A DNA stretch of 64,000 bases from Spirochaetia bacterium (GTDB lineage Bacteria; Spirochaetota; Spirochaetia; SP-2023). The DNA lies in NCBI GenBank assembly GCA_965263295.1, contig OZ253665.1, positions 1,952,001 through 2,016,000 on the forward strand, written 5' to 3'. The first letter of the stretch is position 1. Each line of letters starts with the position of its first letter. A model generated the notes under the pieces. That model ran no database searches, was not told the origin of the DNA, and was given only the letters and a program-made list of their open reading frames with translations. Shown here one piece after another: positions 4,457 through 52,559 of this stretch. The translations under genes and the position numbers were made by a program.

Positions 4457-4655
4457 AGACTCTTGTTTAAACTCTTGAAAGTCAAACCTTTCTTGCCTCC
4501 CGTTGTCCTTCCGCCCCTTTTAAATCTTTCCCCTGCCTAAATTTCGTGACTTTTCGCAGTCTTCGTGCCTTTCGTGGTTCCCTCTCATGGGTTCCCGGCC
4601 CGATAACCACGAAAAACACAAAAAAAAGCCCCTCTGTCTTGCAACAGGAGGCGGC
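4071..4655 (+). repeat. direct repeat copy 1 (3' half of the TauE gene plus downstream DNA)
   Basis: near-identical to 5676-6247. Confidence 0.95.
4536..4636. repeat. CACGAAA/TTTCGTG element (right arm followed by a truncated left arm)
   Basis: CCTAAATTTCGTG..TTTCG..CTTCGTG..TTTCGTGGTTCC then GGCCcgaTAACCACGAAA. Confidence 0.85.
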
Positions 4656-4946: not shown

Positions 4947-5366
4947 ATGAATAAAAATGACATTATGGTTGAGAAATTTAATTCTTACAAAAAAGACAAG
5001 GAATCCAAAGAAATTCACCTTCCAAAAGTGTGGGATTCTTGGTTATTGGCTTACGATAACCGAAAAAGGTACGGTTTCATGCACAACGTTGAATTTCACA
5101 AACTCTGTCGTGAAAGTCGTCAACTTCGGATTGAAGAACTTGAAGAAATTACCGACGAATACCTGAAATCTTCACTTGAAAGTATACTGGAGACAGAAAA
5201 CAGGGTTATGGTGGAGTTAGATAGACGAAATAACGATTTCAAACAAGACTCCGAAGATTCTAAGACTTTAAACGACGAATCTTTAACGGATGATACATAT
5301 TTGGTGAAACTTTCTGAAAGTTTCTTTCACAATTACAGCGAAATTCTTTCAATGATCGATTTTTAA
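4947..5366 (+). CDS. hypothetical protein in the AT-rich insert
   Basis: 139-aa ORF, AT-rich, GGA-containing RBS candidate upstream. Confidence 0.55.
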   Translation: MNKNDIMVEKFNSYKKDKESKEIHLPKVWDSWLLAYDNRKRYGFMHNVEFHKLCRESRQLRIEELEEITDEYLKSSLESILETENRVMVELDRRNNDFKQDSEDSKTLNDESLTDDTYLVKLSESFFHNYSEILSMIDF

Positions 5367-5675
5367 GTTATAAATCGATCATTTTATTGTGAATTATGAA
5401 TGAAAATATGCATTCTACAATCTTGGATATATTATGACGATATTCACGGGTCTATAAAATATTTTTAAGGGTCTTATACTATGAAGAAAGAATATTCCAA
5501 CGATAAAAATAATTTTATCAAAGGTGTATACCCACCAAGTATTGAAGATTTGGGAAAATCGAGAAACGATTAAAATATTCAAGTCATAAAGATGGTTTTT
5601 TCAATGAAAAATCGTTAAGATGGTAAAAGATATTAAATTTTAACAATACTTGACGAAATACCCACACGCATTCAA

Positions 5676-6247
5676 TTCTCAATGCCAGTGCCAATGGTGC
5701 GATCGGTTTTCTCGCGGGAGCGCTGGGAGGCTCAGGCCCCCCGTTATCCTTTGGCTTTCCGCGCGTCCATGGCAAGCCCGAGAAATTAAGGCGACCCTCT
5801 CTTTTTTCTTTATGATGCAAGCGATTGGCGCCATTATCGTCTTTGCGTTCGACAAGCTGTTAAACATGGAGCTGCTGCGACTCGGGCTGTATGCTCTGCC
5901 CGGCTTTGTCGTGGGAACAGTCGCCGGGATACTCACTTTTGATTATCTGCACAAGAAGAAGCTGGACTACCATAAAATTGTCCATGCATTGCTTGTCGTA
6001 ATTGGCATCAGGTTGATTTGGCGTAGTGTGGTGGAAATTCAGGTCTGAAGACTCTTGTTTAAACTCTTGAAAGTCAAACCTTTCTTGCCTCCCGTTGTCC
6101 TTCCGCCCCTTTTAAATCTTTCCCCTGCCTAAATTTCGTGACTTTTCGCAGTCTTCGTGCCTTTCGTGGTTCCCTCTCATGGGTTCCCGGCCCGATAACC
6201 ACGAAAAACACAAAAAAAAGCCCCTCTGTCTTGCAACAGGAGGCGGC
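5676..6247 (+). repeat. direct repeat copy 2 (TauE 3' pseudogene fragment to 6048, plus repeat element 6128-6228)
   Basis: matches 4071-4655 with a 12-bp deletion, a 1-bp deletion and 8 substitutions. Confidence 0.95.
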
Positions 6248-7630: not shown

Positions 7631-7740
7631 AGTCTAAAGACTCCTCAATGCAAGTTCTCTAATCAATTATAGGCCAGGCGAGTGCTCAAGTACAAGCCGA
7701 AAGCGCTTCCCGTAGTTCATTTTTTGCCTTGTTTGCCCTC

Positions 7741-7929
7741 CGTGCCACCCGTGGTTCCCTTTGAGTCTCTGGCCGAGTAACCACGAAATACACAAAAAAA
7801 GTACGAAACAACACGAAAAATTCTAAAAATTCTAAAGCCCCTCTGCCTGAACGCCCCCGTCGTTTCTCCCACAGCTCCCCAGCCTAAATTTCGTGTCCTT
7901 TCGCTGTCTTCGTGGCTTTTTGTGGTTCC
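7741..7929. repeat. CACGAAA/TTTCGTG element, complete left and right arms
   Basis: GGCCgagTAACCACGAAATACAC...CCTAAATTTCGTG...GTGGTTCC, abutting the pepA stop codon. Confidence 0.9.
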
Positions 7930-9546
7930 TCATCCCAAACAGGCTTGCGCATACTGCCGCACGAAGCTGGCCAACAGGCGCACGCCGGCACTACGCGAGC
8001 TCTCGCCCAACGAAGGATGTTCCTCCAGGCTGGACCATCCCGCGAGATCCAGATGGACCCAAGCGTGCCGGCAAGCGTCTGTCACTTGCGCGCCGCCCTC
8101 GCCATCCTCACTTTCTGGGAAGGCAAACTTTTGCAGAAATAAGGCCGCCGTCAGGGAACCTCCACCCATGGAACTCTTGGTCGAAATATTCGACATATCG
8201 GCCAATTTGCTGTCAAGAAAGCCGGCATAAGGTTGAAACAAAGGCATGCGCCAGACCTCTTCGCCGGTATCGCGGGCGGCCTGAGCCAATAGAGAGGCCA
8301 CTTGATCGTCATTGCTGTAAAAAGCGGCGCACTGCTCTCCCAGGGCCACGATGGCCGCTCCCGTCAAGGTGGCGCAATCCAGCAACAATTTGGGTTTTTG
8401 CCGCACGGCGTGGTAGATGGCATCGGCGAGAATCAGGCGCCCTTCGGCGTCCGTGTTGTTAATCTCCACAGTCGGTCCCATGGCGGACTTAATAATGTCG
8501 CCGGTCTTGATGGCATTACAACCTATCTCATTTTCCACCAAAGGTATATATGCCTTGAGATTGGCCTTCAGGCCAGAGCTGGCCAAATAATGGAAGGCCC
8601 CATAGACAATGCCGGCCCCCATCATGTCGTATTGCATGCCTTTTAAGCCGGCACTGCTTTTTAGGTTCGTTCCACCAGTATCAAAACAAACGCCCTTGCC
8701 CACCATGGCAATGTGCTGGCTGCTGGAACTGTCGCCTCGGTAGTCCAGAAGCAGCAGGCGCGATTCGCGTGGGCTGCCACGCCCTACCGCCAAGAGCAAG
8801 TTCATGCCTTCCTTTCGCAACCGGGACTCCCCCCAAATTTCCGCGCTTACTTCTGGCAACTTGCCCGCCTCCGCGGCGGCAAAATCGCTAAAGAATTCTG
8901 GGGTACAAATATTGGCCGGACTGAGAACCAGCTTTAAGGTCTGCCGCGCCGCGGCGATCTGATGCTCCAAGTCTTTCAGCACAGTTTGCAATTCGGTCGC
9001 TTTTCCGCGTTCGGCCGCGGGGACAATAAGCTGCAGCTGAACTTCTACGGCGTCGTCTTGTGGCTTCTTCAGTTCCAAAAACTGATGAGAACCAAACCAC
9101 AAACCTTCCAAGACGAGGCGAAACTGCTCCAGGCTGAGCCCCGGAATTACGGGCAAAGCCGCCTCTTCCCAGCGCTGCTTACGGATGGCCGCCGCCAAGG
9201 ATTTGCCCCACTGCAGCAGGGCCGCGCTTTCATTGCCCAACTCTTTGGTTTTGGCGCCCAGGCGAATATTACTCAGGTGCACAGGCAAGGCGCTCTCGTT
9301 GTCCAAACCGCTGGCCAGAGCGCTCAAATCTTGCTGCTTGCCTTTCAAAGCCGTTTCTTGCTCCAGAAAATGAGCCAGCACCTGCTGTATGCCCGCCCGC
9401 CAGGGTTCCGTTCCCGCGATCCCGGCAAGATCGGGAAATTCTTGACCAGACGGCTTGGCCAAGATCAAGCCACCCTTGACTCCCTTAGTTCCCTGGGCTC
9501 TTTTGTCGGTGGCTAGCTTCAAGCTATCGTTGATAATGAAGGTCAT
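7930..9546 (-). CDS. pepA: M17 leucyl aminopeptidase
   Basis: VGKGVCFDTGG, NTDAEGRL and ATLTGA motifs. Confidence 0.92.
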   Translation of the reverse strand: MTFIINDSLKLATDKRAQGTKGVKGGLILAKPSGQEFPDLAGIAGTEPWRAGIQQVLAHFLEQETALKGKQQDLSALASGLDNESALPVHLSNIRLGAKTKELGNESAALLQWGKSLAAAIRKQRWEEAALPVIPGLSLEQFRLVLEGLWFGSHQFLELKKPQDDAVEVQLQLIVPAAERGKATELQTVLKDLEHQIAAARQTLKLVLSPANICTPEFFSDFAAAEAGKLPEVSAEIWGESRLRKEGMNLLLAVGRGSPRESRLLLLDYRGDSSSSQHIAMVGKGVCFDTGGTNLKSSAGLKGMQYDMMGAGIVYGAFHYLASSGLKANLKAYIPLVENEIGCNAIKTGDIIKSAMGPTVEINNTDAEGRLILADAIYHAVRQKPKLLLDCATLTGAAIVALGEQCAAFYSNDDQVASLLAQAARDTGEEVWRMPLFQPYAGFLDSKLADMSNISTKSSMGGGSLTAALFLQKFAFPESEDGEGGAQVTDACRHAWVHLDLAGWSSLEEHPSLGESSRSAGVRLLASFVRQYAQACLG

Positions 9547-9725
9547 GCTTAACTCCTCGTGATTATTTTGTATTATGATAAAGAAAACAAATACCGAGAG
9601 CCAATATCGAGAGCCGATATCGAGAGCCGATATCGAGAGCTAAGCGGCGATCGCGCAAGCGCCAGCCAGAATTATTGTCGGCACGGACGGGCTCTTTTGG
9701 GTGGGTTCTATGTCATGGGTGCACT

Positions 9726-9815
9726 GGCCCCGTAACCACGAAAAACACTAAAAAACACGAAAATGCTAAAACACCGCGCCTCCCGCTTGAACGCCTTTCA
9801 CTGCTCCCGTCATCC
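9726..9815. repeat. CACGAAA element, left arm only
   Basis: GGCCccgTAACCACGAAAAACACTAAAAAACACGAAAA. Confidence 0.8.
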
Positions 9816-9838
9816 ATTATTTTACAGGAATTTTGCGC

Positions 9839-9970
9839 CTAAATTTTCAGTCCTTGACTTTTTAGCGCCTTTGCAACTGAAGGCACTGGCGAGGTATAGC
9901 GACCGCTATGAAAAATACGGCATAATTCCTGGCCGCCGTACAAATGCGGTGTATGGCACTGGGCTAGCAT
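9839..9970 (-). CDS. small 43-aa ORF of unknown function
   Basis: GAGGAG RBS 7 nt before ATG; ends in LKSQGLKI*, the same as the rhodanese at 52212. Confidence 0.3.
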   Translation of the reverse strand: MLAQCHTPHLYGGQELCRIFHSGRYTSPVPSVAKALKSQGLKI

Positions 9971-17937: not shown

Positions 17938-17989
17938 TCTTAATTTATTTCGCCCTCCCCTCAAAAAAAGGCAGAAAAAAGGACGCGAC

Positions 17990-18142
17990 GGGGACCACGA
18001 ATTGCACGAAAGACGGCGAAAAGTCACGAAAGTTAGGCGGGGGAGCCGCGGGGGAAACGATGGACGACGGGAGGCGCGGGGGCGTTTTAGAATTTTCGTG
18101 TTGTTCGTACTTTTTTGGTGCTTTTCGTGGTTCCTCAGCCAG
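17990..18142. repeat. CACGAAA/TTTCGTG element, complete, reverse orientation
   Basis: GGGGACCACGAA...CACGAAAGTTAGG...TTTTCGTGGTTcctcaGCCAG. Confidence 0.9.
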
Positions 18143-18147
18143 GGTCT

Positions 18148-18223
18148 CTCCTCTCAGCTCCGAACCAAGAGGCCCCAAAAGCAACAGGTTGACTGCGAAC
18201 AGTCGTTTAATTAGGGACGACAT
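18148..18223 (-). pseudogene. decayed lipoprotein signal-peptide fragment paralogous to the 52010 lipoprotein
   Basis: MSSLIKRLFAVNLLLL versus MSSDLIFKRLFAVSLVLL; 1-nt frameshift, and the lipobox Cys position reads TGA. Confidence 0.65.
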
Positions 18224-18407
18224 GAAATAAAAATAAGTTAAATATATTATTCATAGACATGTAATGAATGCTTGTCTGAGGAACTGACTATTACGTTTTA
18301 ATATAAGACTCCAAATAATCTTCTCAAGTATTTGCAGGAAATTTTCAACTAACTGGCCAAAAGTAAATTACAATGCCATGCTTTTCCCTTATCCTATTGT
18401 CAGTATA

Positions 18408-18426
18408 AATAATAATTATTATTATC
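18408..18426 (+). promoter_or_regulatory. Fur-box-like site
   Basis: AATAATAATTATTATTATC, 15/19 match to GATAATGATAATCATTATC, upstream of the uptake operon. Confidence 0.6.
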
Positions 18427-18518
18427 ATAATCATAAATTCGGACGAGCAACACTGGTAATGATAAAGAACACGCAGTCGTTATATTTCATTGCCGCATTA
18501 CCTGGGAGAGTTGCTGCC

Positions 18519-22060: not shown

Positions 22061-22075
22061 AGGAGAGTTTTTCCA

Positions 22076-22669
22076 ATGAAAATTCAAACGAAGGAGCTGA
22101 TTACGCTGGGTATTTTCTCGGTGATTATCATCAGCATCAACATCGTGATTGGCTTGCCGACGATGTTTTCACCCATTCTGATCCCGATTGCCCGATGTCT
22201 GTGCTGTTTGATCACGGGTATCCCTTTCATGCTCTATCTGACGCGAGCGAAGCAGGGGGAATTGATTTGGCTGATGGGGCTGATCATGGGCGTAATAATG
22301 GTGCTTTTCGGGGACTACGTACTGACCCTGGCCACGGGGCTGTTGGCAGGCGTGATTGCCGACCTTATATGCCGAGCGGCGAGAAAAAACCAGAGCCGCG
22401 CTCTGGTTGTCCTCGGCTACGGCGTTTTCAATCTCTGGACTGTCGGCGGGTTACTGCCGCTGCTGTTTATGCGCGAGGAAATTGAGGCTCAGACTGCGCG
22501 ACAACTGGGGGCGGAGTATGCCCACCGTCTTATTGAACTATTTTCCGTGTCAATGGTGTGTTGGACGCTGGTGGGGATTTTTGTCTCCGGCTTGCTGGGC
22601 GGGGTAATCGGTTTGAGGATGCTCAATAAGCATTTTGTGAAGGCCGGGCTTGTCCAGAAACATGGCTGA
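22076..22669 (+). CDS. MptD-family putative ECF transporter S component
   Basis: KELITLGIF...ITGIPFMLYL...LNKHFVKAG pattern and operon context. Confidence 0.8.
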   Translation: MKIQTKELITLGIFSVIIISINIVIGLPTMFSPILIPIARCLCCLITGIPFMLYLTRAKQGELIWLMGLIMGVIMVLFGDYVLTLATGLLAGVIADLICRAARKNQSRALVVLGYGVFNLWTVGGLLPLLFMREEIEAQTARQLGAEYAHRLIELFSVSMVCWTLVGIFVSGLLGGVIGLRMLNKHFVKAGLVQKHG

Positions 22670-23384
22670 TAAGACTTTGCTGGCGCAGCGGGCCGGCGTC
22701 GTCGATGTACGCACCAATATGCTTGGGCTGCTGCTTATCAATACGTTGGTTATGACCGGCAAGGGCGGCGTTTTCCAGATGGCATGCGTTGCGGTGGTTT
22801 GTGGATTGCTGTTGCAGCAGCGTCGCTGGCGTGCCGCTGCGATACTGGCGTTCTGTATTGGCGCATTGGTGATGCTTCCGGTAATTGCCACGCTGGACGG
22901 TATGCCCGCCAGCGTGACGATGCTGCTGACGGCGCTGATGTTTACCCGTCCTTATCTGATCGCGGGTTTTATGGGGTATTACTTTATCTGCGCTACGTCG
23001 CCCAGTCTGTTGATTGCCGGAATGAATCGCCTGCGGGTGCCGCAGATGGTGATTATTCCGCTCGCCGTTATGCTGCGTTTTTTCCCGGTCATATGGGAAG
23101 AGCAGCAGGCGATTCGTGGCGCTATGCGCATGCGCGGGTTGCCGGGCCGCGGCGGCGTTCTGCTGCATCCCTGGCGTACGCTGGAGTACATTTTGATCCC
23201 GCTTATCGGTGCGGCCATACGATCCGGCGAAGCGATGTCTGCTTCTGCGCTGAGCCGTGGCTTGGGCAATCCCGTTACGCCGTCTTCGATTGTGCCGCTG
23301 AGATTCGGCGGAGCGGACCTGTTGCTGTGTCTTTTGTACGGCGGGCTGGTGGTGCTGTTTTTTTACTGCGGAAGTGTATGGTAG
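22662..23384 (+). CDS. ECF transporter T component
   Basis: LAVMLRFFP, MRMRG and LSRG motifs. Confidence 0.88.
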   Translation: MADKTLLAQRAGVVDVRTNMLGLLLINTLVMTGKGGVFQMACVAVVCGLLLQQRRWRAAAILAFCIGALVMLPVIATLDGMPASVTMLLTALMFTRPYLIAGFMGYYFICATSPSLLIAGMNRLRVPQMVIIPLAVMLRFFPVIWEEQQAIRGAMRMRGLPGRGGVLLHPWRTLEYILIPLIGAAIRSGEAMSASALSRGLGNPVTPSSIVPLRFGGADLLLCLLYGGLVVLFFYCGSVW

Positions 23385-24748
23385 ACGGCATTGTTCTCAA
23401 TCAGGTCAGCATTACGTTTCCGACTTCCGCTAGTCCGGCGCTAGATAAGGTCAGCCTCTCGATCGATCGGGGGGAGTGCGTGCTGTTAATCGGGCAATGC
23501 GGCTGTGGCAAATCTAGCCTGCTGAATCTGATTAACGGGATCGTGCCGCATGTTATTCCCGCTGAGATTACCGGTCGTATCAACATTGACGGCAGCGTAC
23601 CGATGCAGGAAAAACTCTGGCAACTGGGTCGCAAAGTTGCCACGGTCTATCAAAATCCACGTCGCCAATTTTTCTGCGCCGATCCGCTGGGAGAACTGGC
23701 ATTCGGCAGTGAGCATGCGGGACAAGACCCTGACGAGATTCTGGCGAGGGCTGCCGGTGTAGCCGAGCATCTGGGGATCACTCACTTACTGACGCGCAAT
23801 ATGTTTGCCCTCTCCGTCGGGGAGCTGCAGCGGATAGCGATAGGAGCGGGGCTGATGGACCGGCCTTCTTTTTTGCTGCTGGATGAACCAACTTCGAATC
23901 TTGATGCAAAAAGTATGGATGCGTTGATCCGGATATTGCAAATCCTGCGGGCTGGCGGTATGACTATCATGATTGCCGAGCATCGACTCTGGTTTTTGCG
24001 TGATGTGGCTGACCGCGTCATTCGCCTCTATCGCGGAAAAATCGTTGAGGATTTACCCGCCAGCCAGTTCTGGTTGCGCGATGACGCTCTACGTCATCAA
24101 CAGGGGCTGCGGGTGCTATCGAGGCCCGGAACGACCCTGTTGCCTGAGCCGCGCGCCGAAACTGAGGGGATTAGCTATTGCCATCCAGGAGAAAGAACTC
24201 TACATTTCGCGCGCGGGCACATTACGGCGCTGTGTGGTGAAAATGGGGTGGGGAAAAGTACGTTGGCCAGCAGATTGGCAGGGCTGGAAAGCACTCGCGA
24301 TAAGATACTGCTCGATGGAAAACCGTTTCCATTGCGAGAACGTTTGCGACGCGCATTTCTGGTAATGCAGGATGTGAATCGTCAACTTTTTGGCGCCAGC
24401 GTGGCGCAGGAACTGCGGATGGGACGGCATGCCGCGACCACTCTGTCTCTGGACAGAGCGATTCACGATATGGGGCTGAACGAACTCCTGGAGCTGCACC
24501 CTATGGCGCTCTCTGGCGGTCAGCAGCAGCGGGTTGTGGTGACTCTTGCGCTGCTGGAGCAGCGAGAGGTGTTTATCTTCGATGAGCCTACTTCCGGGTT
24601 AGATTATGAAGGGCTGCTGCAGGTGGTGGCACGACTGAAGCAGCTGGCGAGCACCGGCGCAGTGATGATTCTGATTACACATGATGAGGAGCTCCTCGCA
24701 CTTTGTGCGGACTATCAGATTGTGATACCGCCCGCGAACTCAGCTTAG
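23378..24748 (+). CDS. ECF transporter tandem ATPase
   Basis: two NBDs: GQCGCGKS/LSVGE/DEPT and GENGVGKS/LSGGQ/DEPT. Confidence 0.9.
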   Translation: MVDGIVLNQVSITFPTSASPALDKVSLSIDRGECVLLIGQCGCGKSSLLNLINGIVPHVIPAEITGRINIDGSVPMQEKLWQLGRKVATVYQNPRRQFFCADPLGELAFGSEHAGQDPDEILARAAGVAEHLGITHLLTRNMFALSVGELQRIAIGAGLMDRPSFLLLDEPTSNLDAKSMDALIRILQILRAGGMTIMIAEHRLWFLRDVADRVIRLYRGKIVEDLPASQFWLRDDALRHQQGLRVLSRPGTTLLPEPRAETEGISYCHPGERTLHFARGHITALCGENGVGKSTLASRLAGLESTRDKILLDGKPFPLRERLRRAFLVMQDVNRQLFGASVAQELRMGRHAATTLSLDRAIHDMGLNELLELHPMALSGGQQQRVVVTLALLEQREVFIFDEPTSGLDYEGLLQVVARLKQLASTGAVMILITHDEELLALCADYQIVIPPANSA

Positions 24749-24784
24749 GTGTGGAGAAGATAAAAAATGAAAGGTTGCGAAAGA

Positions 24785-25003
24785 GGAACCACGAAAGTGC
24801 ACGAAGACAGCGAAAGGTCACGAAAGTTAGGTAGGGGGGCCGCGGGGACGACGACGGGGAGCTGCGGGTGACAGGGAAAAGTTAAAATAGGGGCTGGATG
24901 GAGAACGGGAGCTGTGGGGGGCGTCGAGGCGGGAGGGGCGGTTTTTTAGAATTTTTCGTGTGGTTTCGTACTTTTTTGGTGTTTTTCGTGGTTAGCGGGC
25001 CAG
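24785..25003. repeat. CACGAAA/TTTCGTG element, complete, reverse orientation
   Basis: GGAACCACGAAAGTGCACGAAG...TTTTCGTGGTTAgcgGGCCAG. Confidence 0.9.
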
Positions 25004-25077
25004 GGACTTTGAGGCGTGCCACAGGCACAGCCCCAAAGATCAAGCAAGAACTATCAGAGAGTTTTGGCCACTCTTCT

Positions 25078-26904
25078 CTATTTTGATTTTGATTCCTCCA
25101 AGATAACTTTATCTTTGAATTCATGTGTACCAAAGTCTTTATAGAACCAGAAGCTCATTGGATCTTGACAAGTTTTTGGCAATGGGCCCTCGGCCTCTAA
25201 AACTAATTTGCCTTTTTCCGTTTCGCTCCATTTGAGATACCCACTCAGTTCAAACTGTTCATAATTTTTCATCCAGTTCAAGTTTTCATCTTCTTTAATG
25301 CGATGCCTCTTATCATTTTGATTATTAATCTTAATGAATATAAAAGCTTTCATGGTAATGATTTCTAACAGGCCATTCTCTGGATTAAATTTCCATTCCA
25401 TATCCTGATGCACTTTATAATTTTTATTATTATGAGTCCGCTCATACTGCCATTGCGCATCCTTTCCTTCTTTACGGTTCATATTCGGTGGAAATTTGAG
25501 AAAGCGATGAATTTTATCATTTGCATCTTCTTCAGTTCCTTTGATTAAATCATTGTTACAGAATCTCTTGCCCTGCAGATCATTTACCGTTACCGGGCGC
25601 GATTGCGGGGCAATGAATGCCGACAATTTTTTCCCTCCTTTGGTCGATGTAAAAGTGACTTTGTTGTCTATTTTTTCCACGCGGTAAGTTTTATCCGTGA
25701 AAAAGCTTTTTAACCCGTCTATTTTATCTATGTCCTTCACGCGCAGGACAAGTTTTTCAGGATCTTGCTTTCCCAGGGAGATGTAAAAATTGGATTGCGT
25801 ACTCTTGATTTTCTGAAACATGCCATTGGCTTTGCTTTTCCACAGTATGGTTTTCAAAAACAAGTGCTTAAATTTATTGACTTGTGAAGAATCAATGCTG
25901 TCGAAAGACAGGGCATACAAGACATCATCACCCTGTTCTTCCGCTTTTGTGCCCAGGGACAGGACTTGGTTTTCCTTTTCATAATATTTGCTAAAAGTTT
26001 CTTTGAATTTAGATTTCAACGTATTTTCATATTGAGCAAGCTTTGATGAAACAGAAGGAACAGTAGCAGTTTCAGTAGATTCAACTTCAGTAGTAGTAAT
26101 AGTAGTTGTTATCTCCTTAGCTACTGTTCCTTCTGTTTCGGCTTCCTCTAATACTTCAGACTCTCCTTCCTCAGTCACAGTAGTAGTGGAGGTAGCGCTT
26201 GATTCTCCTGTGGTTCCCATCCGTCCTTTTTGGCCTTTATCATCACCTTTATCTGTGGCTTCTACCCCTGACCCTTTACTGCTAGAAGTCTCAGTTTGGG
26301 TCTTGCTTTTTTGGCCTTTATCTACATCATCACCTTTTTTACTTTCTGCCTTTAAAGTTTCCCCAATTAGTTTTTGAGCAATTTCATCGGGTAGCAAATT
26401 CTCATCAGTTTTGTCGTTTACAATTGAGGTACCATCAGGCAAAATCAATTGGGCGCTGATTTCTATGCCTGATATCTTTTGGAGGTTCAGTTCTTCTACC
26501 GGGAAGCCTGACGGCATTGTCTTCGACAGAGTAAATTCGGCTTTATTCTCTTCTGTAACTTGCTCTTTGTCACACGTGTATATTTTTGACGTGCCTTTTT
26601 TGCGCAGGCCCCACTCAATTTTGCACCCATCCCAGATCTTTTGGTTGACGATGCGCTTATCTTCAGGTTGATGGCTATCGTAGACAAGCTCGCCGTCTTT
26701 CTCAAATTTGTCGACAATGTAGACTATCGACTGCTCTGATGCATTAGTAAAAGCCTGGCTTTCGATATCTTTTTGTTTAATGTGAAAAACACTCTTGGGG
26801 ATTCCTTTGTGTTTTGCAGTGTCATCACAGCCTGCAAGTAGCAGGAGAGTCAGCATATATATGCTGAACTTTCTTGTTTTCCCCCAAATGTTTTTGGTCG
26901 ACAT
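25078..26904 (-). CDS. lipoprotein of unknown function with a T/E/S/K-rich linker
   Basis: lipobox LAGC, 608-aa ORF. Confidence 0.8.
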   Translation of the reverse strand: MSTKNIWGKTRKFSIYMLTLLLLAGCDDTAKHKGIPKSVFHIKQKDIESQAFTNASEQSIVYIVDKFEKDGELVYDSHQPEDKRIVNQKIWDGCKIEWGLRKKGTSKIYTCDKEQVTEENKAEFTLSKTMPSGFPVEELNLQKISGIEISAQLILPDGTSIVNDKTDENLLPDEIAQKLIGETLKAESKKGDDVDKGQKSKTQTETSSSKGSGVEATDKGDDKGQKGRMGTTGESSATSTTTVTEEGESEVLEEAETEGTVAKEITTTITTTEVESTETATVPSVSSKLAQYENTLKSKFKETFSKYYEKENQVLSLGTKAEEQGDDVLYALSFDSIDSSQVNKFKHLFLKTILWKSKANGMFQKIKSTQSNFYISLGKQDPEKLVLRVKDIDKIDGLKSFFTDKTYRVEKIDNKVTFTSTKGGKKLSAFIAPQSRPVTVNDLQGKRFCNNDLIKGTEEDANDKIHRFLKFPPNMNRKEGKDAQWQYERTHNNKNYKVHQDMEWKFNPENGLLEIITMKAFIFIKINNQNDKRHRIKEDENLNWMKNYEQFELSGYLKWSETEKGKLVLEAEGPLPKTCQDPMSFWFYKDFGTHEFKDKVILEESKSK

Positions 26905-27189
26905 AAGCTTGCCCCCTTAAATTCAAAATAGATATCCCCGAAGTAGATATCCCAAAGGGCAAAAATCCGACGCAAAAACCGGGCAGGCAAAATACCAACG
27001 ATATTTATTCCACATTGTTTGCAATGCATTTTGAGTTTCGATTTTCGATGAAATACCATTTTGAATTGTCATTTGAAATTTGCTTGTGGTATTAACCACT
27101 GATAAGTATAATTTACTAAAAATCTATATTTTAATCAATATTTTTTTAAATAAAAATTGTTATTTTTCATTATTTTCTATTTATAACCG

Positions 27190-27577
27190 GCTTAAAATAT
27201 CCATTCATGCAGACTGCGATAATCCGGCTCAGCGTGTTGTTGTAATGCTTAGCAGCTTGAGTCAATCAGGAAGAAATAGAATTTTTGTCATCGCCGACGT
27301 GGAATCTTCAAAGTCTGTGTTGCCTCGGTTTGCCTTGCTGCGTGGGCGGCAAGCGGTTATGATACCGAGGCTATGAGCTAGTGGCTTCAGTTTGCTAGCC
27401 GGCAGACTGGCAGATTTAAATAAAGAAACGGGACAAAGGGCGCTGCGGGGAGCAGCTGGCAGTGAATAACCGGAATAAACAAGAATGTGCGGCTATTACG
27501 GGCTCTTTGTGCCGGAGGATGAAGGAGTTCTCCATATGGACAATTTGGACAGTGGCATTCTGGTGGCCCAATGTTAA
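27190..27577 (+). pseudogene. possible decayed ORF of unknown family
   Basis: GC-richer patch between AT-rich DNA; one frame is interrupted by three stops. Confidence 0.25.
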
Positions 27578-27578
27578 A

Positions 27579-28931
27579 ATGAATACGCAAGCTAATAAAA
27601 TAGAATTTAAAAAGTTTCCTCAAACAAAGGGAAATGTGAAATTTAGGGAATCGTTGTTACGTGAATTATTTTATGTCGCAAAGTTAGAAACGATATTATT
27701 AGTACTTTTAAATTTGATTTCATTTTTTTCCCCTCTAATTTTTATATATGTGATATCTCAAATCATCCAAGGTAATATTTATTATCGTAATAACGATTCA
27801 GCCATAATATTTGCTATTTTATGTGTGTTATTTAAGTATCTTTCTAGTATGGCCAGTTTGTTTACAGAGATAAAAATATCAAAGCTTATATGCTTTAAAT
27901 ATATGGGTATGATTTTAAATAGTCAAAACTCAGTTTCTATTGATAAAAAGCTAAAAGTATCTTCTTTTGATCTTAATATAATTTTAGACAATTTGAGTCG
28001 AGCTATACAGTTTTATACTTCCCCTCTGCTTATACTGTTTATATCTATTTACTTCTTTTTATCAGAAGGATTGCTTGGTTTATTTATTATTATATTAGTA
28101 TTCATATTCATACCTATCACGCTATTATTATCAAAAAAATCAAATCAAAACTATCAACGAGTGATGGACTTGACTTCTACTCGGATTGAAAATTTTAAAT
28201 CTTGGCTTCGTTATGCTCCATACAAATTACAGTTAGGTATGGTAGATACTGAGTTAAAGGAACATTCTGAAATAGCAAAAAGAGAAGTTAAATGGAGAAA
28301 CTTTGACACTATCATAAGAGGAATCGATGGATATATCATTGCTTTTGGGAGAATTATTCCTTTCGCTATCTTGATGTTTCTCGACTACATTCATCCAAAT
28401 TCAGGAGTGTATACATCATTTATATGGTTTTCCATACCAATATTACAAGTTATATTGTCCATTCCAAGCTCATATACATACAATAAAGCAGCTAATAAAT
28501 CTATTCAAGAGATAAATATTGTTTTACGTCAAGCTTATATAGATAAAGTTGGGGCAAATAATAACGAAAGTTTGGTTCTCGATGTCGATTGGCCAATATG
28601 GCGTGGTCAATTAAAAGCACTAGTGCCTGACTTAGAGCATGTAGAGAAAAGCTTTCTGATAGATTTATTATCAGCAGCTAGACTAATTCCTGAATTTGGA
28701 GAAAGTATAGATGCGGCATTAGAAAAAATTATTGACCTAGATGGAAAAAATATATCCAAAGGTCAACTTTTAAGATTGCAGATATTCAGGGGATGTGTAT
28801 TGGCTTATTTAAATAATCAAAAGCTCTATATTGATAATCAATTTTTTAGTTTAGATATGATGGTAAAAGAAAATCTATTAGAATTTTTAAATAACAATAA
28901 ATATATTAAAATATCAATCACTAAAAATTGA
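27579..28931 (+). CDS. ABC-exporter-like TMD plus partial NBD (signature and D-loop only)
   Basis: hydrophobic helices, GKNISKGQLLRLQIFRG, YIDNQFFSLD; no Walker A; start uncertain. Confidence 0.65.
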   Translation: MNTQANKIEFKKFPQTKGNVKFRESLLRELFYVAKLETILLVLLNLISFFSPLIFIYVISQIIQGNIYYRNNDSAIIFAILCVLFKYLSSMASLFTEIKISKLICFKYMGMILNSQNSVSIDKKLKVSSFDLNIILDNLSRAIQFYTSPLLILFISIYFFLSEGLLGLFIIILVFIFIPITLLLSKKSNQNYQRVMDLTSTRIENFKSWLRYAPYKLQLGMVDTELKEHSEIAKREVKWRNFDTIIRGIDGYIIAFGRIIPFAILMFLDYIHPNSGVYTSFIWFSIPILQVILSIPSSYTYNKAANKSIQEINIVLRQAYIDKVGANNNESLVLDVDWPIWRGQLKALVPDLEHVEKSFLIDLLSAARLIPEFGESIDAALEKIIDLDGKNISKGQLLRLQIFRGCVLAYLNNQKLYIDNQFFSLDMMVKENLLEFLNNNKYIKISITKN

Positions 28932-28946
28932 TTTTGTAGGCCTCAA

Positions 28947-30365
28947 ATGGATTACTCAAGGAAAAAATATTTCGATATTTGGTCACTAGCAAAGCTCGTA
29001 TGGAAAGGCATTGTTATAATGTTTTTACCGGCAATAATGGTTTCTTACTCCGCAAATCTATTAGATTTAGAAATTATGAATACCCCGGCTATGTTATTGT
29101 CTTTCGCTATCTCAGGAGTGTTATTAGGCATGCTTGGTGGGTTAATGATTGAGTCAAAAGTTAGGAAGGTATATACTTATAAGTGGATCTTAGCCATTAA
29201 AAATATTAAAGAAAACATCGATATTAATTACATCCAACTCTGTTCGAGAGATTTAACTACGATATATGAAAGAATTAGCTGGTATGCCCAAGACATATTT
29301 TGGGTTTGTAGTTTATTGCTGATTCTATTAGTCGGCTTGTTTTGGACATATACTTACGTAGGGCTAATCATTTCTTTCGGGTTCTGTCTCCTATTGTTTA
29401 TTTTATACTGTGGGACTATTGATTGGCTTATAACCACAAGAAAGAATTCCATTACAGGTTTCGATAAACTATTAGAGGCTACGCAAAATGCGCACAATTT
29501 GAATAAAATGAGTAGCTACATCAAAGATAATTTTTTTAAAAAAATTATAAATGAAAATAAGTATACTTGTATTTATGAGCCCGTAATGCATTTCTATAAA
29601 TCTAGATCAAGTATGCTGATATCAAAATCTATTGTTGGTATACACTGTTTGCTATTATGCGATATTATAATATTAACTTCACTTTTTTGGGGCATTAGTC
29701 AGCAAGAAAAATCGGAAAACATAGTTTTAATAATAACTATCTTGTTGCTAATTAAAGGTTATTTAGTAAATACATTTTTTGCTGTAACCGGATTTAAATC
29801 TCATGCTATCTCGGTCGATAGGCTTGAAATATCTTCTCAAAAGCATCAGTGTGTCAGAGCATTAGCTCATAAAAATGAATTTATGATTCCGGCTTTTAGT
29901 AGCATAATTGATTTCAAAAATTTGTCACTTAAAAAAGGGCATATATACCATCTTAGCGCAGACTCAGGTAGTGGTAAAACGACATACATGAAATGCGTAT
30001 CCAATATTATGCGTGTCAATTATTCAGATGTTTTTACACAGCACAAATATCAAGATGTTAAGATTGTTTACATCGACTCAGGGTGGGAAAAATATGTACC
30101 GGCTAAGTTTTCATCTATGGAAACGAAAGATACTCAAATCCAGATTCTCTTTAATTTAGTCAAGAAAATAATAGAGGAACACAAAAGACCTATAATTATT
30201 TGTTTAGATGAGATATTGAACGGTTTCGGAGAACAAGAGAAAGAATATTTTCTAAATAATATTACAAAGTTTATTAAAAATACTGAAGTCTCCGTTATTA
30301 TTTCTGATCATTCAGTGGCAGGGATACGCACGATAAAATTATTAGATTTGATAGAAACTAGGTAA
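28947..30365 (+). CDS. ABC-exporter-like TMD plus partial NBD (Walker A/B and H-loop, no signature)
   Basis: SADSGSGKTT, IICLDE, IISDH. Confidence 0.7.
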   Translation: MDYSRKKYFDIWSLAKLVWKGIVIMFLPAIMVSYSANLLDLEIMNTPAMLLSFAISGVLLGMLGGLMIESKVRKVYTYKWILAIKNIKENIDINYIQLCSRDLTTIYERISWYAQDIFWVCSLLLILLVGLFWTYTYVGLIISFGFCLLLFILYCGTIDWLITTRKNSITGFDKLLEATQNAHNLNKMSSYIKDNFFKKIINENKYTCIYEPVMHFYKSRSSMLISKSIVGIHCLLLCDIIILTSLFWGISQQEKSENIVLIITILLLIKGYLVNTFFAVTGFKSHAISVDRLEISSQKHQCVRALAHKNEFMIPAFSSIIDFKNLSLKKGHIYHLSADSGSGKTTYMKCVSNIMRVNYSDVFTQHKYQDVKIVYIDSGWEKYVPAKFSSMETKDTQIQILFNLVKKIIEEHKRPIIICLDEILNGFGEQEKEYFLNNITKFIKNTEVSVIISDHSVAGIRTIKLLDLIETR

Positions 30366-30485
30366 GAATGCATAAAAATTTATTTTTGGGAGATAAGGCT
30401 TTTTTGCTCCGATATAATACCAAGTTAAATGATGTCGAGTCAGAGAAATTATACCTGACTGAAATCGAATTAATTATGAACATCC

Positions 30486-31169
30486 TTATTTAGATATCTC
30501 GTCCCTGATAGCATTCAAAAAAGAACCTATGATAGCTCCGCTAAAAAACAAGTGATCATATACAACAAATAATTCTTTTCTTGTATACACAAAGGTCAGT
30601 GGTGGCCCCACAGACGCTTCCATAAGTGGCAAGAATCCACTGTCGACTCCAATACTATGCCAGTCTGTTATGGCTAAAGTAGGGAAATACTTTTCTCCCT
30701 TTTCCTGTAGCTTTTCATGATCTTTTATGTATAGCCACTGTTCTTCATGTGTCTTACAATATAAAATACATTTTTTAATATAATCATTGATCTCGTCGAT
30801 AGTTAACCTGTTGACAAACGGCACCATCGACAAATGACCTTCCCTGGTCTGGATGGAAAAACAGAAATGATGGTTGTCGTTAACAAACATCACATCCTGA
30901 CCGCCATGTCTGCCGATAATGCCGTTCAGGCCCTTGAATTCTTCTCTTGAAAGAACGTTGGAAATTGCTTTTAGGTTATGAGCAAGAAAATGCTTCTTTC
31001 TCTCAAGATTTATGTTAACTGAATGCTTCACACTTATGGGTTTGCTCTTTCGTCTTCTCCATATGTTATTTCTAATATTTGAAAAAGACATTTCAAAAAA
31101 TGGGTTGTTTTTATCTCTTTTCCCCAGCAGACCTCTGCCTACAATGTCCATCTCTCTTATTGTTATCAT
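30486..31169 (-). CDS. stand-alone CoA-acyltransferase-like protein (2-oxoacid dehydrogenase E2/CAT catalytic fold)
   Basis: PTLAITDWHSIGVDSGFLPL and YDHLFFSGAIIGSFL resemble E2 motifs; RBS GGAGG before ATG 31169. Confidence 0.6.
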   Translation of the reverse strand: MITIREMDIVGRGLLGKRDKNNPFFEMSFSNIRNNIWRRRKSKPISVKHSVNINLERKKHFLAHNLKAISNVLSREEFKGLNGIIGRHGGQDVMFVNDNHHFCFSIQTREGHLSMVPFVNRLTIDEINDYIKKCILYCKTHEEQWLYIKDHEKLQEKGEKYFPTLAITDWHSIGVDSGFLPLMEASVGPPLTFVYTRKELFVVYDHLFFSGAIIGSFLNAIRDEISK

Positions 31170-31263
31170 TTTGCACCTCCATGAAAGAACCGTGTCAGAT
31201 GTGTAATTAGGAACGCCGATCGCATTCTTATAAAAGTAGTATAATAAAAAAGCGATGTGAAAA

Positions 31264-31562
31264 CTATATGAATGGATTTCCCGTCGCCAACTGCGCACCT
31301 CTAAAAATCTGGAGGTGACCTTGAAGCGCTGTGTGCCATGTGGGTTCACTCGCGTTATACAACTCGGTGGGAATGAAGTCCGGTTCTATGAGGACGACTT
31401 CAATTCCTGGGAAGCAATAGATCATCTCTCTGCGCAGGGCATCGGCCAACGCTTCGACAGCATGTTTTGTCGACGGATACCAGCCCATCCCAGGTGGCGA
31501 TATATATACTGGCTGGATGAATTCTTCTGCTTGAACAGAGTATCGATTATGTTTTTAATCAT
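31264..31562 (-). pseudogene. short-chain dehydrogenase/reductase fragment
   Basis: YPSTKHAVEALADALRRE...VVLIEP; no Rossmann N-terminus, upstream frame broken. Confidence 0.75.
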
Positions 31563-31764
31563 GTTGGAGCCGATGGGGCAATTTTAGGTACGGGCAATTC
31601 TGAGCATTTGAAAAGTTTCGTTGACAATGCTGCTTCGATAGGGGTTTTTAGTGACAAAAATATTGATGCGACATAATAGGTTTGAAGGTCGCTCTTTGGA
31701 TGATTCCTTAAAATTTTTAAAAAATGCTTAGCTCTGGGGTAAAGCCTGGATATGACAAGCGGCG

Positions 31765-31811
31765 AAAGCGAGTAGCCCCCCGATTAGCCCTTGGGGGTTA
31801 CTCGCTTTTTT
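31765..31811 (+). terminator. intrinsic-terminator-like hairpin
   Basis: AAAGCGAGTAGCCCC...GGGGTTACTCGCTTTTTT. Confidence 0.65.
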
Positions 31812-31860
31812 CATGGTTACTTGGCCAGGAACTGTGAAAGGGGGGGCTAGTCAACTTGAA

Positions 31861-31917
31861 ATACTATCTATAGTATATATTTGTAATTTTATAGGATATA
31901 TAACCTATATATAGTGT
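31861..31917 (+). promoter_or_regulatory. tandem NrdR boxes
   Basis: ATACTATCTATAGTAT (31861) and AACCTATATATAGTGT (31902), starts 41 bp apart, directly before nrdD. Confidence 0.75.
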
Positions 31918-31943
31918 ATGCAATCGGGAGTGGAGCCATACCT

Positions 31944-33683
31944 ATGAAGCAAGTTGAAGTGTTAAATCCGAAATCGACGCGTGGTTGGGTTGATAGCCGT
32001 GAGACCTTTGAAGAATATCTATGGCAACAAGATTGGCGGGTACGGGAAAATGCCAATCAGAGTTATTCACTGGGTGGATTAATGCAGGGTCTGTCGGGGA
32101 AACTGACAGCCAATTACTGGCTGGAAGAGGTTTACCCGCAGTCAATAAGCGAGTTACACCGCAACGCCGATATTCATATTCACGATCTGGGCATGTTTTG
32201 TGGTTATTGTGCCGGGTGGTCGTTGCGTCAATTGTTGCACGAAGGCTTCAATGGGGTTGCCGGTTCAGTGGAAGCTGCTCCGGCACGCCACCTGCGCTCG
32301 GCCATTGGTCAAATAGCCAATTTTCTGGGTACACTGCAAAATGAATGGGCCGGCGCTCAAGCCTTATCTTCAGTGGACAGCTATCTAGCTCCCTACGTGC
32401 GAGTCGATCAGCTCAGTTACAAAGAAGTCAAGCAAAATATGCAAGAACTTATTTACAATCTGAATGTGATGTCGCGCTGGGGATCGCAGGCACCGTTTAC
32501 CAACTTCACCTTTGACTGGAGTTGTTCGCCCGACTTGAAGGCCCAGCGGGTTGTGCTGGGCGGCGAAGAGCAGGATTTTTGTTACGGTGACCTGCAAACA
32601 GAAATGAACATGATCAACAAGGCTTTCATTGAAGTCATGAATCGAGGGGATGCCAAAGGGCGTATTTTCACTTTTCCAATCCCGACCTATAACATAACGG
32701 AAGATTTTGACTGGGACGGGGAAAATGCGCAGTTATTGTTTGAAGTGACAGCCAAGTATGGCCTACCATACTTTCAGAATTTCCTGAACTCTGATCTCTC
32801 CCCCTCTGATGTGCGGTCAATGTGTTGTCGTTTACAACTGGATTTACGCGAGTTGCGCAAACGAGGCGGCGGGCTTTTTGGTTCGTCAGAGCAGACAGGT
32901 TCAATTGGCGTGGTGACAATTAACTGCGCACGCCTGGGGCATCTTTTCAGTAACCGACAAGAAGCTTTGCTGTTCAAGCATCTGGATTATCTGCTGGCGC
33001 AAGCTAAAGACAGCCTTGAAATCAAGCGCAAGGTCATTAACCACTACCTCAAGCGCGGTCTATTTCCTTATACACGACGCTACTTGCACAATTTAGATAG
33101 ACACTTTGCCACTATCGGGGTCAATGGTATCAACGAGATGCTGCGTAATTTCACCAATGACAAAGAGGACATTACGAGCGCTTGGGGTAAGAATTTTGCC
33201 GAGCAATTTCTGGAATACATACGGAATCGGATGCAAGACTTCCAGGAAGAAACTGGCGGGCTTTACAATCTGGAGGCCACGCCAGCCGAAGGAACAACTT
33301 ACCGCTTTGCCCGCAAGGATCAGGAGTTGTATCCCGGTATCCTTCAGGCTGGTGTTCCAGAAGCGCCATATTATACCAATTCCTCCCAATTACCGGTGGG
33401 ATATGGGGGCAGCCCGCTAGGGACGCTGGATCATCAGGAATCTTTACAACGCAAATATACGGGTGGCACCGTTTTACACTTATATATGGCCGAGCCAATT
33501 AATTCCTGGCATCAGTGTCAAAAACTGGTTCGTCGAATTTTGGAAAACTATCGCATCCCATACCTGACAATTTCACCCACTTTCTCAATTTGTCCGAAGC
33601 ATGGATATATTGGTGGAAAGCACGAATTTTGTCCCAAATGTGATGCGGAACTACTAATTGAATACTCGCAACGAAGGAGTTAA
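31944..33683 (+). CDS. nrdD: class III (anaerobic) ribonucleoside-triphosphate reductase, large part, no ATP cone and no Gly-radical loop
   Basis: HIHDL..GYCAGWSL, SMCCRL, NLEATPAE, CPKH..CPKC. Confidence 0.92.
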   Translation: MKQVEVLNPKSTRGWVDSRETFEEYLWQQDWRVRENANQSYSLGGLMQGLSGKLTANYWLEEVYPQSISELHRNADIHIHDLGMFCGYCAGWSLRQLLHEGFNGVAGSVEAAPARHLRSAIGQIANFLGTLQNEWAGAQALSSVDSYLAPYVRVDQLSYKEVKQNMQELIYNLNVMSRWGSQAPFTNFTFDWSCSPDLKAQRVVLGGEEQDFCYGDLQTEMNMINKAFIEVMNRGDAKGRIFTFPIPTYNITEDFDWDGENAQLLFEVTAKYGLPYFQNFLNSDLSPSDVRSMCCRLQLDLRELRKRGGGLFGSSEQTGSIGVVTINCARLGHLFSNRQEALLFKHLDYLLAQAKDSLEIKRKVINHYLKRGLFPYTRRYLHNLDRHFATIGVNGINEMLRNFTNDKEDITSAWGKNFAEQFLEYIRNRMQDFQEETGGLYNLEATPAEGTTYRFARKDQELYPGILQAGVPEAPYYTNSSQLPVGYGGSPLGTLDHQESLQRKYTGGTVLHLYMAEPINSWHQCQKLVRRILENYRIPYLTISPTFSICPKHGYIGGKHEFCPKCDAELLIEYSQRRS

Positions 33684-48563: not shown

Positions 48564-48568
48564 ATAAT

Positions 48569-49205
48569 GGCCGAGTAACCACGAAATACACTAAAAAAGT
48601 ACGAAACAACACGAAAAATTCTAAAATTCTAAAGAGCCCATCCGCCTGGACGCCCTTCCTGGCTGCCGTCCCCTTTTTTTACTTTTTCCCTGTCACCCGC
48701 AGCTCCCCGTCGTGCCTCCCGCGGCTCCCCCTGTCTAACTTTCGTGCCCTTTCGCCACCTTTCGTGTACTTTCGTGGTTCCCTTTCAAAGTTCCCCGTCG
48801 TGCCACCCGCGGCTCCCCCGTCTAAATTTCGTGCCCTTTCGCCGTCTTCGTGCACTTTCGTGGTTACTCTTTCGCCACCTTTCGTGCCTTTCGTGGTTCC
48901 GGGCCAAGTAACCACGAAATACACTAAAAAGTACGAACGACACGAAAAACCCTAAAACACCGCGCCTACTCCCTGGACGCCCCCCGCGCCTCACGTCGTC
49001 CATCCGGCCCCTTTTTTTCTGTCACCCACAGCCCCCCAGCCTAGATTTCGTGCCCTTTCGCTGTCTTCGTGCCCTTTCGTGGTTCCCTTTAAAGTTTCCC
49101 TGTCACCCGCGGCTCCCCATCGTGCCACCCGCGGCTTCCCTGCCTAAATTTCGTGACTTTTCGCCACCTTTCGTGCAATTCGTGGTCCCCCTTTCGTGGT
49201 CCCCC
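48569..49205. repeat. compound cluster of CACGAAA/TTTCGTG elements (2 left arms, 4 full and 2 partial right arms)
   Basis: arms read directly, separated by C-rich spacers. Confidence 0.92.
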
Positions 49206-49212
49206 AAAAACC

Positions 49213-49245
49213 AAAAAAGCGAGCAACCTTAAAGGTTACTCGCTT
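49213..49245 (-). terminator. intrinsic terminator of the Ig-repeat lipoprotein gene
   Basis: AAGCGAGTAACCT-TTA-AGGTTGCTCGCTTTTTT on the minus strand. Confidence 0.75.
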
Positions 49246-49325
49246 GCGCGGCTCGTCATATCACCGGCAGGAATTCATTCCAGCTGGCATGCGCTCAAGC
49301 TTAAAGCCAAGTCCAAGAGTAAATA

Positions 49326-52010: not shown

Positions 52011-52211
52011 ATCTGTATCCTCCTTATAAAAAGAATGTGGGCTACAAATTTTAAATGAGGAACGATATGAAATAGAAAATAATAATATTGGTTCGCAGGC
52101 ACGGGCAAACTTGCCAATAGAAGCGCCTACAACAGCTCTAGTATATTGCCCAAAACCAACTTTGACAAGTATTTTCAAATATTTCACAAAACATTTACAG
52201 GAATTTTGCGC

Positions 52212-52559
52212 CTAAATTTTCAGTCCTTGACTTTTCAGTTCTTGGTAAGCCGTGATTCCACCGGCCATATTCCACAGTTTTTTAAACCCTTGGCCAGCCA
52301 GGAACTGAGCCGCTTTCATGGAACGCCCACCGCTCTTGCATTGCAAGATCAGTCCCGTTTCCTGGTATGGAAGTAACGACACCCATTTACCGTCGAGAAT
52401 CTCTGCCAGCTCCAGATGCATACTGCCAGGAATTGAGGACTCTGTATATTCATCGGAACGCCGAACGTCCAAAAGTATAATCTCCGGATACTGCTCTAAG
52501 AGCTCCAAACATTCCTGAACGGACAAACTGACAATTTTTGTGTCCTCAGGGAAAAACAT
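52212..52559 (-). CDS. rhodanese-like protein
   Basis: LLDVR..EY...IPGS, CKSGGRS, MAGGI. Confidence 0.9.
   Translation of the reverse strand: MFFPEDTKIVSLSVQECLELLEQYPEIILLDVRRSDEYTESSIPGSMHLELAEILDGKWVSLLPYQETGLILQCKSGGRSMKAAQFLAGQGFKKLWNMAGGITAYQELKSQGLKI

Follow-up and report, generated by a model that had tools for sequence, protein, structure and literature searches.

The 64,000-nucleotide stretch of DNA analysed here (the window, positions 1952001-2016000 of a spirochaete genome of 2,407,850 bases in a single contig with 49.4% GC) contains the word CACGAAA or its complement TTTCGTG 36 times, as compared to an expectation of 9.2 ± 3.2, and not one of 100 shuffles reaches 36. What kind of element is built from these words, and which enzyme, if any, attends to it? 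The original prediction, made from the window alone, was a non-autonomous REP- or MITE-like family at junctions of accessory DNA that would drive the gain and loss of cassettes, with a proposed link to GxxExxY genes in other phyla, and as a whole this interpretation is now partly supported. For the survey, three nucleotide profiles (nhmmer) were made from the cluster at 48568-49205 and iterated over the whole genome, describing an A-rich arm of 57 nt (L), a C-rich middle of 72 nt (M), and a T/C-rich arm of 50 nt (R). All eight sites that had been listed carry the family, as found by repeat search and, except for the remnant at 31809-31841, by nhmmer:

4508..4632, plus strand: M tail, R (4531-4578) and a truncated L start, 52 nt past the TauE gene (repeat search, nhmmer)
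6100..6224, plus strand: second, identical copy of the 4508-4632 piece, with R at 6123-6170 (repeat search, nhmmer)
7733..7931, plus strand: single unit of a degenerate R-type word, L (7770-7828), a short spacer and R (about 7880-7926) (repeat search, nhmmer, folds)
9724..9817, plus strand: solo L (9725-9769) with the spacer that usually follows L (repeat search, nhmmer)
17983..18148, minus strand: single unit in reverse, R ... L on the plus strand, modules 17994-18141 (repeat search, nhmmer)
24769..25008, minus strand: full L M R unit in reverse, modules 24788-25002 (repeat search, nhmmer, folds)
31809..31841, minus strand: remnant of an L start or R-L junction, 73 nt upstream of nrdD (inverted pair only)
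48568..49205, plus strand: compound cluster L M R M R R L M R M R with two extra R-type words at the right end (nhmmer, genome 2000568-2001186; sequence)

The compound cluster holds 16 of the words and, as had been noted, adjoins the 3' end of the PKD/Ig-repeat lipoprotein gene, the stop codon of which at 49326 is 121 nt away. The remnant at 31809-31841, which is 85% complementary to 48887-48919, lies below the reach of the nhmmer models. It also holds that copies bracket the gene at 6287-7630 and the blocks at 18378-24748 and 25078-31587: the unit at 7733..7931 sits between the 6287-7630 gene and an M17 peptidase gene, the unit at 17983..18148 lies upstream of a GC-rich ABC-transporter block, and the unit at 24769..25008 is found at the border of a block with 56-58% GC and one with 30-42% GC. 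The flagellar export operon (52.5-64 kb) is free of copies, and none of the 50 ORFs scanned in the window has a Pfam match to a transposase or recombinase, again in line with what had been read from the letters. The copy at 6100..6224 is part of a 560-nt direct duplication that includes the TauE 3' end (98-100% identity, spacing 1592). This duplication (4071-4632 and 5676-6224) flanks 1 kb of inserted low-GC DNA that holds a single ORF (4947-5366), and the second TauE piece, at 5650-6048, is a fragment. The 30-42% GC block at 25000-31600, in a genome of 49% GC, has large ORFs without a Pfam family, one of which (28947-30365) gives a weak P-loop/STAND-like signal; this block is probably acquired DNA. 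The nrdD gene (31914-33683) was not found in three genus-mates with the query used.

Across the whole genome, the arm profiles recovered 324 modules (80 L, 85 M and 159 R) in 68 clusters, which together occupy 19,855 bases or 0.8% of the 2.41-Mb genome. The number of clusters and the lack of an enzyme gene in the window support the prediction of a non-autonomous, REP/MITE-like family. Within each of the 68 clusters the modules follow the order L, M, R in one shared orientation, with M being optional and R often multiplied. The arms have 50-57 nt with 3-4 words, the units 130-250 nt, and clusters reach up to 2.6 kb; when a 341-nt unit is used as query, 73 places are found in the own genome. The regular phasing of the arms was confirmed, only that it is tighter than the 9-11 bp that had been assumed: 434 of 443 intervals between successive TTCG cores of R modules are 9 nt (131) or 10 nt (303), and the cores of L are spaced by 9-10 nt or multiples thereof. 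Information is concentrated in about 7 positions per 10-nt unit, with free spacers in between, and the alignment of the L consensus with the R consensus is disrupted by indels. Further shared pieces are found at cluster borders (e.g. window 49207-49250), namely a terminator-like hairpin after an A-run that adjoins at least three clusters, and, at 3-5 clusters apiece, three or more additional motifs with a length of about 25-30 nt, and the family is thus more mosaic than the three-module models. On their G-rich strand, M modules (e.g. 48678-48730 and 24834-24893) contain at least four runs of 3-4 G, 6-9 nt apart, from which the formation of a G-quadruplex on that strand is conceivable.

The affiliation of the arms becomes clear from the only gene of the genome that matches PF13366 (1901353-1901697, minus strand, E = 3.9e-43). 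Its product scores 148.8 bits on the GxxExxY model TIGR04256, for which the cut-off is 35. The gene lies 50 kb upstream of the window within the densest repeat array (1900081-1904388), and it is itself part of a repeat unit, in which L comes first and is followed by the gene, on the opposite strand, and then by M and R. The L module touches the stop codon of the gene, whereas at the other side a 5' leader is followed by M and R, and the sense strand of the gene is the G-rich strand of the element. Seven gene-less units picked from the 68 clusters were aligned to this unit, and all seven match it at both 1901278-1901340 and 1901801-1901920, with 81-100% identity per block, while they have about 45 nt where the gene-bearing unit has a 460-nt gene segment. 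As the gene-less units align to both ends of the gene-bearing one, the repeats of the window are gene-less versions of the nuclease unit, and the roughly 70 intergenic clusters are gene-less copies of the arms that enclose the sole GxxExxY gene. The proposed GxxExxY link was thereby borne out in this genome, and GxxExxY genes of other phyla have the same type of arms.

This latter point comes from an alignment of three spirochaete GxxExxY proteins, with which 599 relatives were confirmed in a one-genome-per-species collection. The best 80 loci were kept, and these belong to Planctomycetota, Acidobacteriota, Verrucomicrobiota, Desulfobacterota, Cyanobacteria, Bacteroidota, Methanoperedens, Methanosarcinales, and others. 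At the 74 loci that have at least 160 nt on each side, flanks of 180 nt were compared, and a local inverted match with a score of at least 30 was found at 64 loci, as opposed to none of 74 with shuffled flanks and 22 of 74 in direct orientation. By eye, the arms at loci of the wider family consist of 10-nt repeats such as CGCAGATGAA and have the outer ends AACC.../...GGTT, and these ends are common to the arms of the own genome and of the wider family.

Within Spirochaetota, where 85 of 401 sampled genomes have a GxxExxY gene and the arms around it are visible by eye at several loci, the flanking word and the protein diverge together. Proteins with 75% identity to that of the own genome are flanked by CACGAAA, a genus-mate with 73% has CGCGAAA, at 63% CACGAAA / CACTAAA is found, at 58-65% CACGGAA, at 49-52% CGCGAAT, and at 47-48% CGCAGAT. 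The word CACGAAA was seen only with the closest protein relatives. The words of one element share the core of their lineage, which suggests that they are homogenised or are selected by a single reader; a simple co-inheritance of gene and arms could also bring about the divergence in step. In the genus-mate G001, on contig 4 (at about 2.006 and 2.011 Mb), the GxxExxY frame begins and ends within its own arms, a third array of arm words is found in frame in the 5' part of the next downstream ORF, which presumably resembles a DNA methylase gene, and the whole GxxExxY unit is duplicated at a distance of 4.6 kb.

As to the protein itself, it has 133 amino acids. In an alignment of 65 sequences, G20, E23, Y26 and K75 never vary, and at least 90% of the sequences retain D63 and E73. 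These residues form the E...D...ExK set of PD-(D/E)XK nucleases. A profile search of solved structures by sequence gave zero matches for GxxExxY. The AlphaFold model has a mean pLDDT of 93.5, and its best solved matches in Foldseek are Cas4 SSO0001 (4ic1, E = 4e-4, TM 0.60), Cas4 Pcal_0546, and an alkaline exonuclease; Hjc resolvases rank lower. From the modelled fold and the conserved residues it is likely that the GxxExxY protein is an active, Cas4-like PD-(D/E)XK nuclease, and it is predicted that this nuclease acts on the repeat arms.

The large number of copies is a peculiarity of this genome. The paired word TTTCGTGNNNTTTCGTG occurs 50 times in it. Among 400 other Spirochaetota genomes, no more than 14 contain this word at all, and none has more than three copies. 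The 341-nt unit has zero matches in 29 of 30 relatives and a single 33-nt match in the remaining one, and no match was obtained in plasmid or phage collections. The absence from 29 of the 30 relatives and the rarity of the paired word argue for a recent burst rather than for a conserved host feature. The genus-mate G001 has four GxxExxY genes and 11 copies of its own word pattern, eight of which are within 20 kb of two of those genes, and the carriage of the gene alone is thus insufficient for a burst.

We see an even chance that the repeats are gene-less copies of a hairpin-armed element, the GxxExxY nuclease of which reads the phased 7-base words and copies or maintains the units in trans. 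In such a mechanism, several nuclease protomers would bind the words, one per helical turn, on paired or synapsed arms. Of the two strands, the G-rich one would be active; it carries the nuclease gene in sense, lies mostly on the lagging-strand template, and pairs best by means of G-T or G-U pairs. New copies could then arise by a nuclease-started copying that depends on replication or repair, and the clusters could subsequently grow, shrink and recombine through their repeated words. Such a recombination might also place clusters at borders of acquired DNA, and it may have amplified one neighbouring gene eightfold.

There is a known precedent for such a partnership in the REP/REPIN sequences and their RAYT enzymes (the REPtron; PMC3116915, PMC3337134 and PMC5581495), in which an enzyme gene is flanked by inverted repeats and the repeat is dispersed as many gene-less units. 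Both systems share the single enzyme gene per genome, the inverted flanks, the intergenic palindromic units without a gene, and the lineage-specific populations. They differ in the enzyme, which is a Cas4-like PD-(D/E)XK nuclease and not an HUH Y1 transposase (PF01797 is absent), in the arms, which have 3-4 phased 7-base words at 9-10 nt spacing instead of a single palindrome of 20-40 nt, and in the modular L, M and R units that are stacked in clusters of up to 2.6 kb. By this analogy, the best account would be that the repeats work like REPINs with a different enzyme.

It is tempting to go further and to regard GxxExxY proteins in general as dedicated enzymes of pan-prokaryotic mobile hairpin elements that have helically phased words at their ends and are copied as single strands from the lagging-strand template, which would be a third route of single-strand transposition or homing besides HUH and DDE, with one gene sustaining about 70 loci that seed island borders and gene amplification. 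At present we consider this generalisation doubtful. In single-strand transposition of the IS200/IS605 type, the ends form hairpins and the orientation is biased with respect to the direction in which the DNA is replicated. These two traits are shared by the repeats, whereas the Y1 transposase is lacking, the ends are long word arrays, and no specific target or cleavage site was identified.

The repeats might instead be kept by the host, similar to the BIMEs of enterobacteria or the BOX A-Bn-C elements of pneumococci, which are modular and intergenic, with end modules that pair and one module that varies in number. They would then serve as transcript-end hairpins, as sites for nucleoid proteins, or as curved-DNA punctuation, and the GxxExxY gene would be a passenger. 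The likeness, compared by description only, lies in the modular build with its variable number of R, in the intergenic position, and in the fact that most copies have no enzyme. The A-tracts within L, which are spaced at one helical turn, and the terminator-like hairpins of neighbouring genes that adjoin several clusters fit such a function as well, and so does the genomic position: by rough gene calls (longest non-overlapping ORFs, n = 1813), all 68 clusters are intergenic, and their contexts are 20 convergent, 16 divergent and 32 tandem, as compared to 240, 240 and 1332 in the genome. According to these counts, however, both kinds of operon border are favoured and not gene 3' ends as such, as 52 of the 68 clusters face at least one gene 3' end, versus 87% of all gaps. 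A chance passenger also does not explain why the gene lies between such arms at 64 of 74 loci across phyla, nor does a host function go along with a family that is missing in 29 of 30 relatives and with a paired word that is found no more than three times in any of the 400 genomes of the phylum. To our knowledge, BIMEs and BOX elements neither have a dedicated nuclease gene nested in a unit nor a 10-nt word periodicity. A host-kept repeat is in our judgement unlikely.

A nuclease-dependent copying with subsequent word recombination would be compatible with the position of the clusters at compositional borders. The median difference in GC content between the 3-kb flanks is 0.060 at the 42 merged loci and 0.035 at 1036 other gaps (Mann-Whitney p = 1.2e-5), and 26% of the 42 loci are above the 90th percentile of the background. 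If GC content is taken to indicate acquired DNA, these figures lend statistical support to the repeats as markers of junctions. In the window, copies border the transporter block of 56-58% GC (19-25 kb), the block of 30-42% GC (25-31 kb), and a low-GC stretch (4-7 kb). These data support that the repeats mark composition junctions, whether they cause them, land there, or survive there.

The orientation of the clusters follows replication. Cumulative GC skew has its maximum near 0.84 Mb and its minimum near 2.08 Mb, and dnaA is found at 2.034 Mb, which is 45 kb from the minimum; an origin at dnaA would turn two clusters into exceptions. The C-rich strand, on which the modules read from L to R, is opposite to the G-rich leading strand in 54 of the 68 clusters (p = 1e-6); when merged loci are counted instead, the figure is 31 of 42 (p = 0.003). 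In most cases the G-rich strand is thus on the lagging-strand template. Where the flanking genes are co-oriented, the element runs antisense to them in 25 of 32 cases, and of seven discordant cases five go with replication and two with transcription, which are so few that the replication bias is inseparable from a transcription bias.

A function at the RNA level would mean that transcripts in the sense of the nuclease gene form, from the two arms, a long stem rich in G-U pairs, which is either processed, perhaps by RNase III, or is itself a small RNA, reminiscent of the ORF-bearing intervening sequences of 23S rRNA. The G-rich strand would be the transcribed one, as it is the sense strand of the nuclease gene and of the flanking genes in the 25 of 32 tandem contexts, and it also folds far better: for 7760-7940, -55.7 kcal/mol were calculated for the G-rich and -36.1 kcal/mol for the C-rich strand (z = -3.2 and -3.0), and for 24765-25010 the values were -68 and -36.2 kcal/mol (z = -1.1 and -1.4). 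The arms pair in the folds of both strands, with G-U pairs of the G-rich strand being A-C mismatches on the C-rich strand. The folds are only moderately better than those of shuffled sequences (z from -3.2 to -1.1). A selected stem should leave compensatory variation, and there is none between the arms, as the spacers of L and R match at 0.457 within units versus 0.466 after permutation (n = 65), and at 0.405 versus 0.416 across R-L junctions (n = 36). A general G-U strand bias was considered for the wider family and dismissed, since at the 64 loci with scores of at least 30 the wobble-type mismatches are 104 in sense and 80 in antisense direction, which is a weak asymmetry. Moreover, no Rfam 15 family is reached at gathering score, the window yielding only tRNA-Asp, and the word period of 9-10 nt would suit B-form DNA but not the 11-bp turn of the A-form. 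With no covariation of the spacers and a weak wobble bias, words that serve as recognition sites are preferred over a selected RNA stem, and we regard the RNA function as improbable.

That the repeats are MITEs moved by a resident DDE-type IS transposase, or attC-like cassette sites of an integron integrase, appears very improbable, since the ten DDE_Tnp_1 fragments of the genome include six with stop codons and, apart from one that is 1.4 kb from the cluster at 557 kb, have no L or R module near the places listed, since the stacking of L M R R R is unlike the simple terminal repeats of MITEs, and since the dense array at 1.900-1.913 Mb, although it alternates small genes with inverted-repeat elements in an integron-like manner, has no integrase to go with it: there are only two tyrosine recombinases, best assigned as XerC/XerD, with 83 and 104 bits on TIGR02249 (cut-off 265), and their genes are more than 130 kb from the array. 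Among the enzymes that had been proposed as co-located partners, GxxExxY is thus present and the tyrosine recombinases are Xer-like only, whereas HUH and rve-type transposases have to be dropped. There are zero matches of Y1 (PF01797) in the genome, with a control search finding this family in 6 of 14 named genomes, and zero matches of rve. A weak match to PF05635 (four-helix bundle) was found at 61.7 kb of the genome, with 23.9 bits and below the cut-off.

Traces of movement, and of the cassette gain and loss that had been proposed, were looked for. No empty site, target duplication, circle or excision joint was seen, in a setting of eroded synteny and of contigs that break at the repeats. 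Among three genus-mates, an M17 peptidase gene is the only one that is common within ±10 kb. No target duplication is visible at the borders of the clusters, which are fuzzy and often run into further modules. In public short-read contigs, six runs contain at least part of the stretch and four contain more than half of its words, and none of the runs listed is of RNA. In four runs that were compared, the contigs end at 48597 and restart at 49206, none spans the cluster, and the many internal contig 'joints' at the cluster stem from further family members.

A rearrangement that is linked to the repeats is directly indicated at one place only, 1907142-1912982, where a small gene is present in eight tandem copies with a repeat cluster at every junction. 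The eight junctions have identical flanks, and their clusters are L, LR, LRR, LRRR, LRRRR, LMR, LMRRR, and LRRMRMRR. As clusters differ between identical flanks, the number of modules changes fast in place, and the repeats are at least associated with the eightfold amplification of the gene. The tandem paralogues encode proteins of 137-159 amino acids with a conserved N-terminus, variable DKRFEQV-like, heptad-like coiled-coil repeats, and a C-terminal membrane anchor, and one dispersed paralogue is encoded at 1929963-1930355. In Pfam, the proteins have no match above cut-off, the best being weak coiled-coil families. Their build presumably recalls the Bdr proteins of Borrelia.

In the literature, no description was found of a pairing of GxxExxY with inverted phased repeats, and no explanation of GxxExxY proteins. 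Neither the passage on GxxExxY in PMC8934634 nor the opening of the abstract of PMC12085832 concerns repeats, four 17-nt arm words were found in no paper, and searches on PDDEXK, on four-helix-bundle/IVS proteins, and on spirochaete repeats yielded nothing about the pairing. A 2024 MITE census describes spirochaete genomes as rich in conserved MITEs, and the word 'nuclease' is absent from its main text. The ShiLan paper was considered and set aside, as the HNH insertion in a phage methylase of which it treats has no bearing on the repeat family. Among the new findings are the orientation linked to replication and the enrichment at composition junctions, both measured here for repeats linked to GxxExxY, as well as the single gene that is faced by about 70 gene-less clusters.

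Few small proteins of unknown function are as common in bacteria and archaea as the GxxExxY proteins, and this genome offers a clean natural test bed, with one gene, one word, a recent burst of about 320 modules, and a measurable strand rule. Should the arms be substrates of the nuclease, this would be a new partnership of enzyme and repeat comparable to REPIN/RAYT. Many of the intergenic repeats that are so far unclassified would thereby be explained, and a small programmable grammar of DNA recognition would be at hand, the word of which varies with the protein. Should they not be, the repeats can still serve to mark borders of this genome that are prone to recombination.

Some further features of the window may be mentioned. 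The gene at 6287-7630 contains an 18-nt tandem repeat (6978-7226, about 10-13 copies) that encodes (AKAKAE)n, and its product, a predicted lipoprotein without a Pfam family, may be a length-variable surface protein. A 45-nt sequence that is distinct from the L/M/R family is present at 9821-9865 and 52194-52238 with 98% identity, in both cases upstream of unrelated gene blocks, and may be a shared promoter or operator. A gene of the Borrelia P83/100 family is also present in the window.
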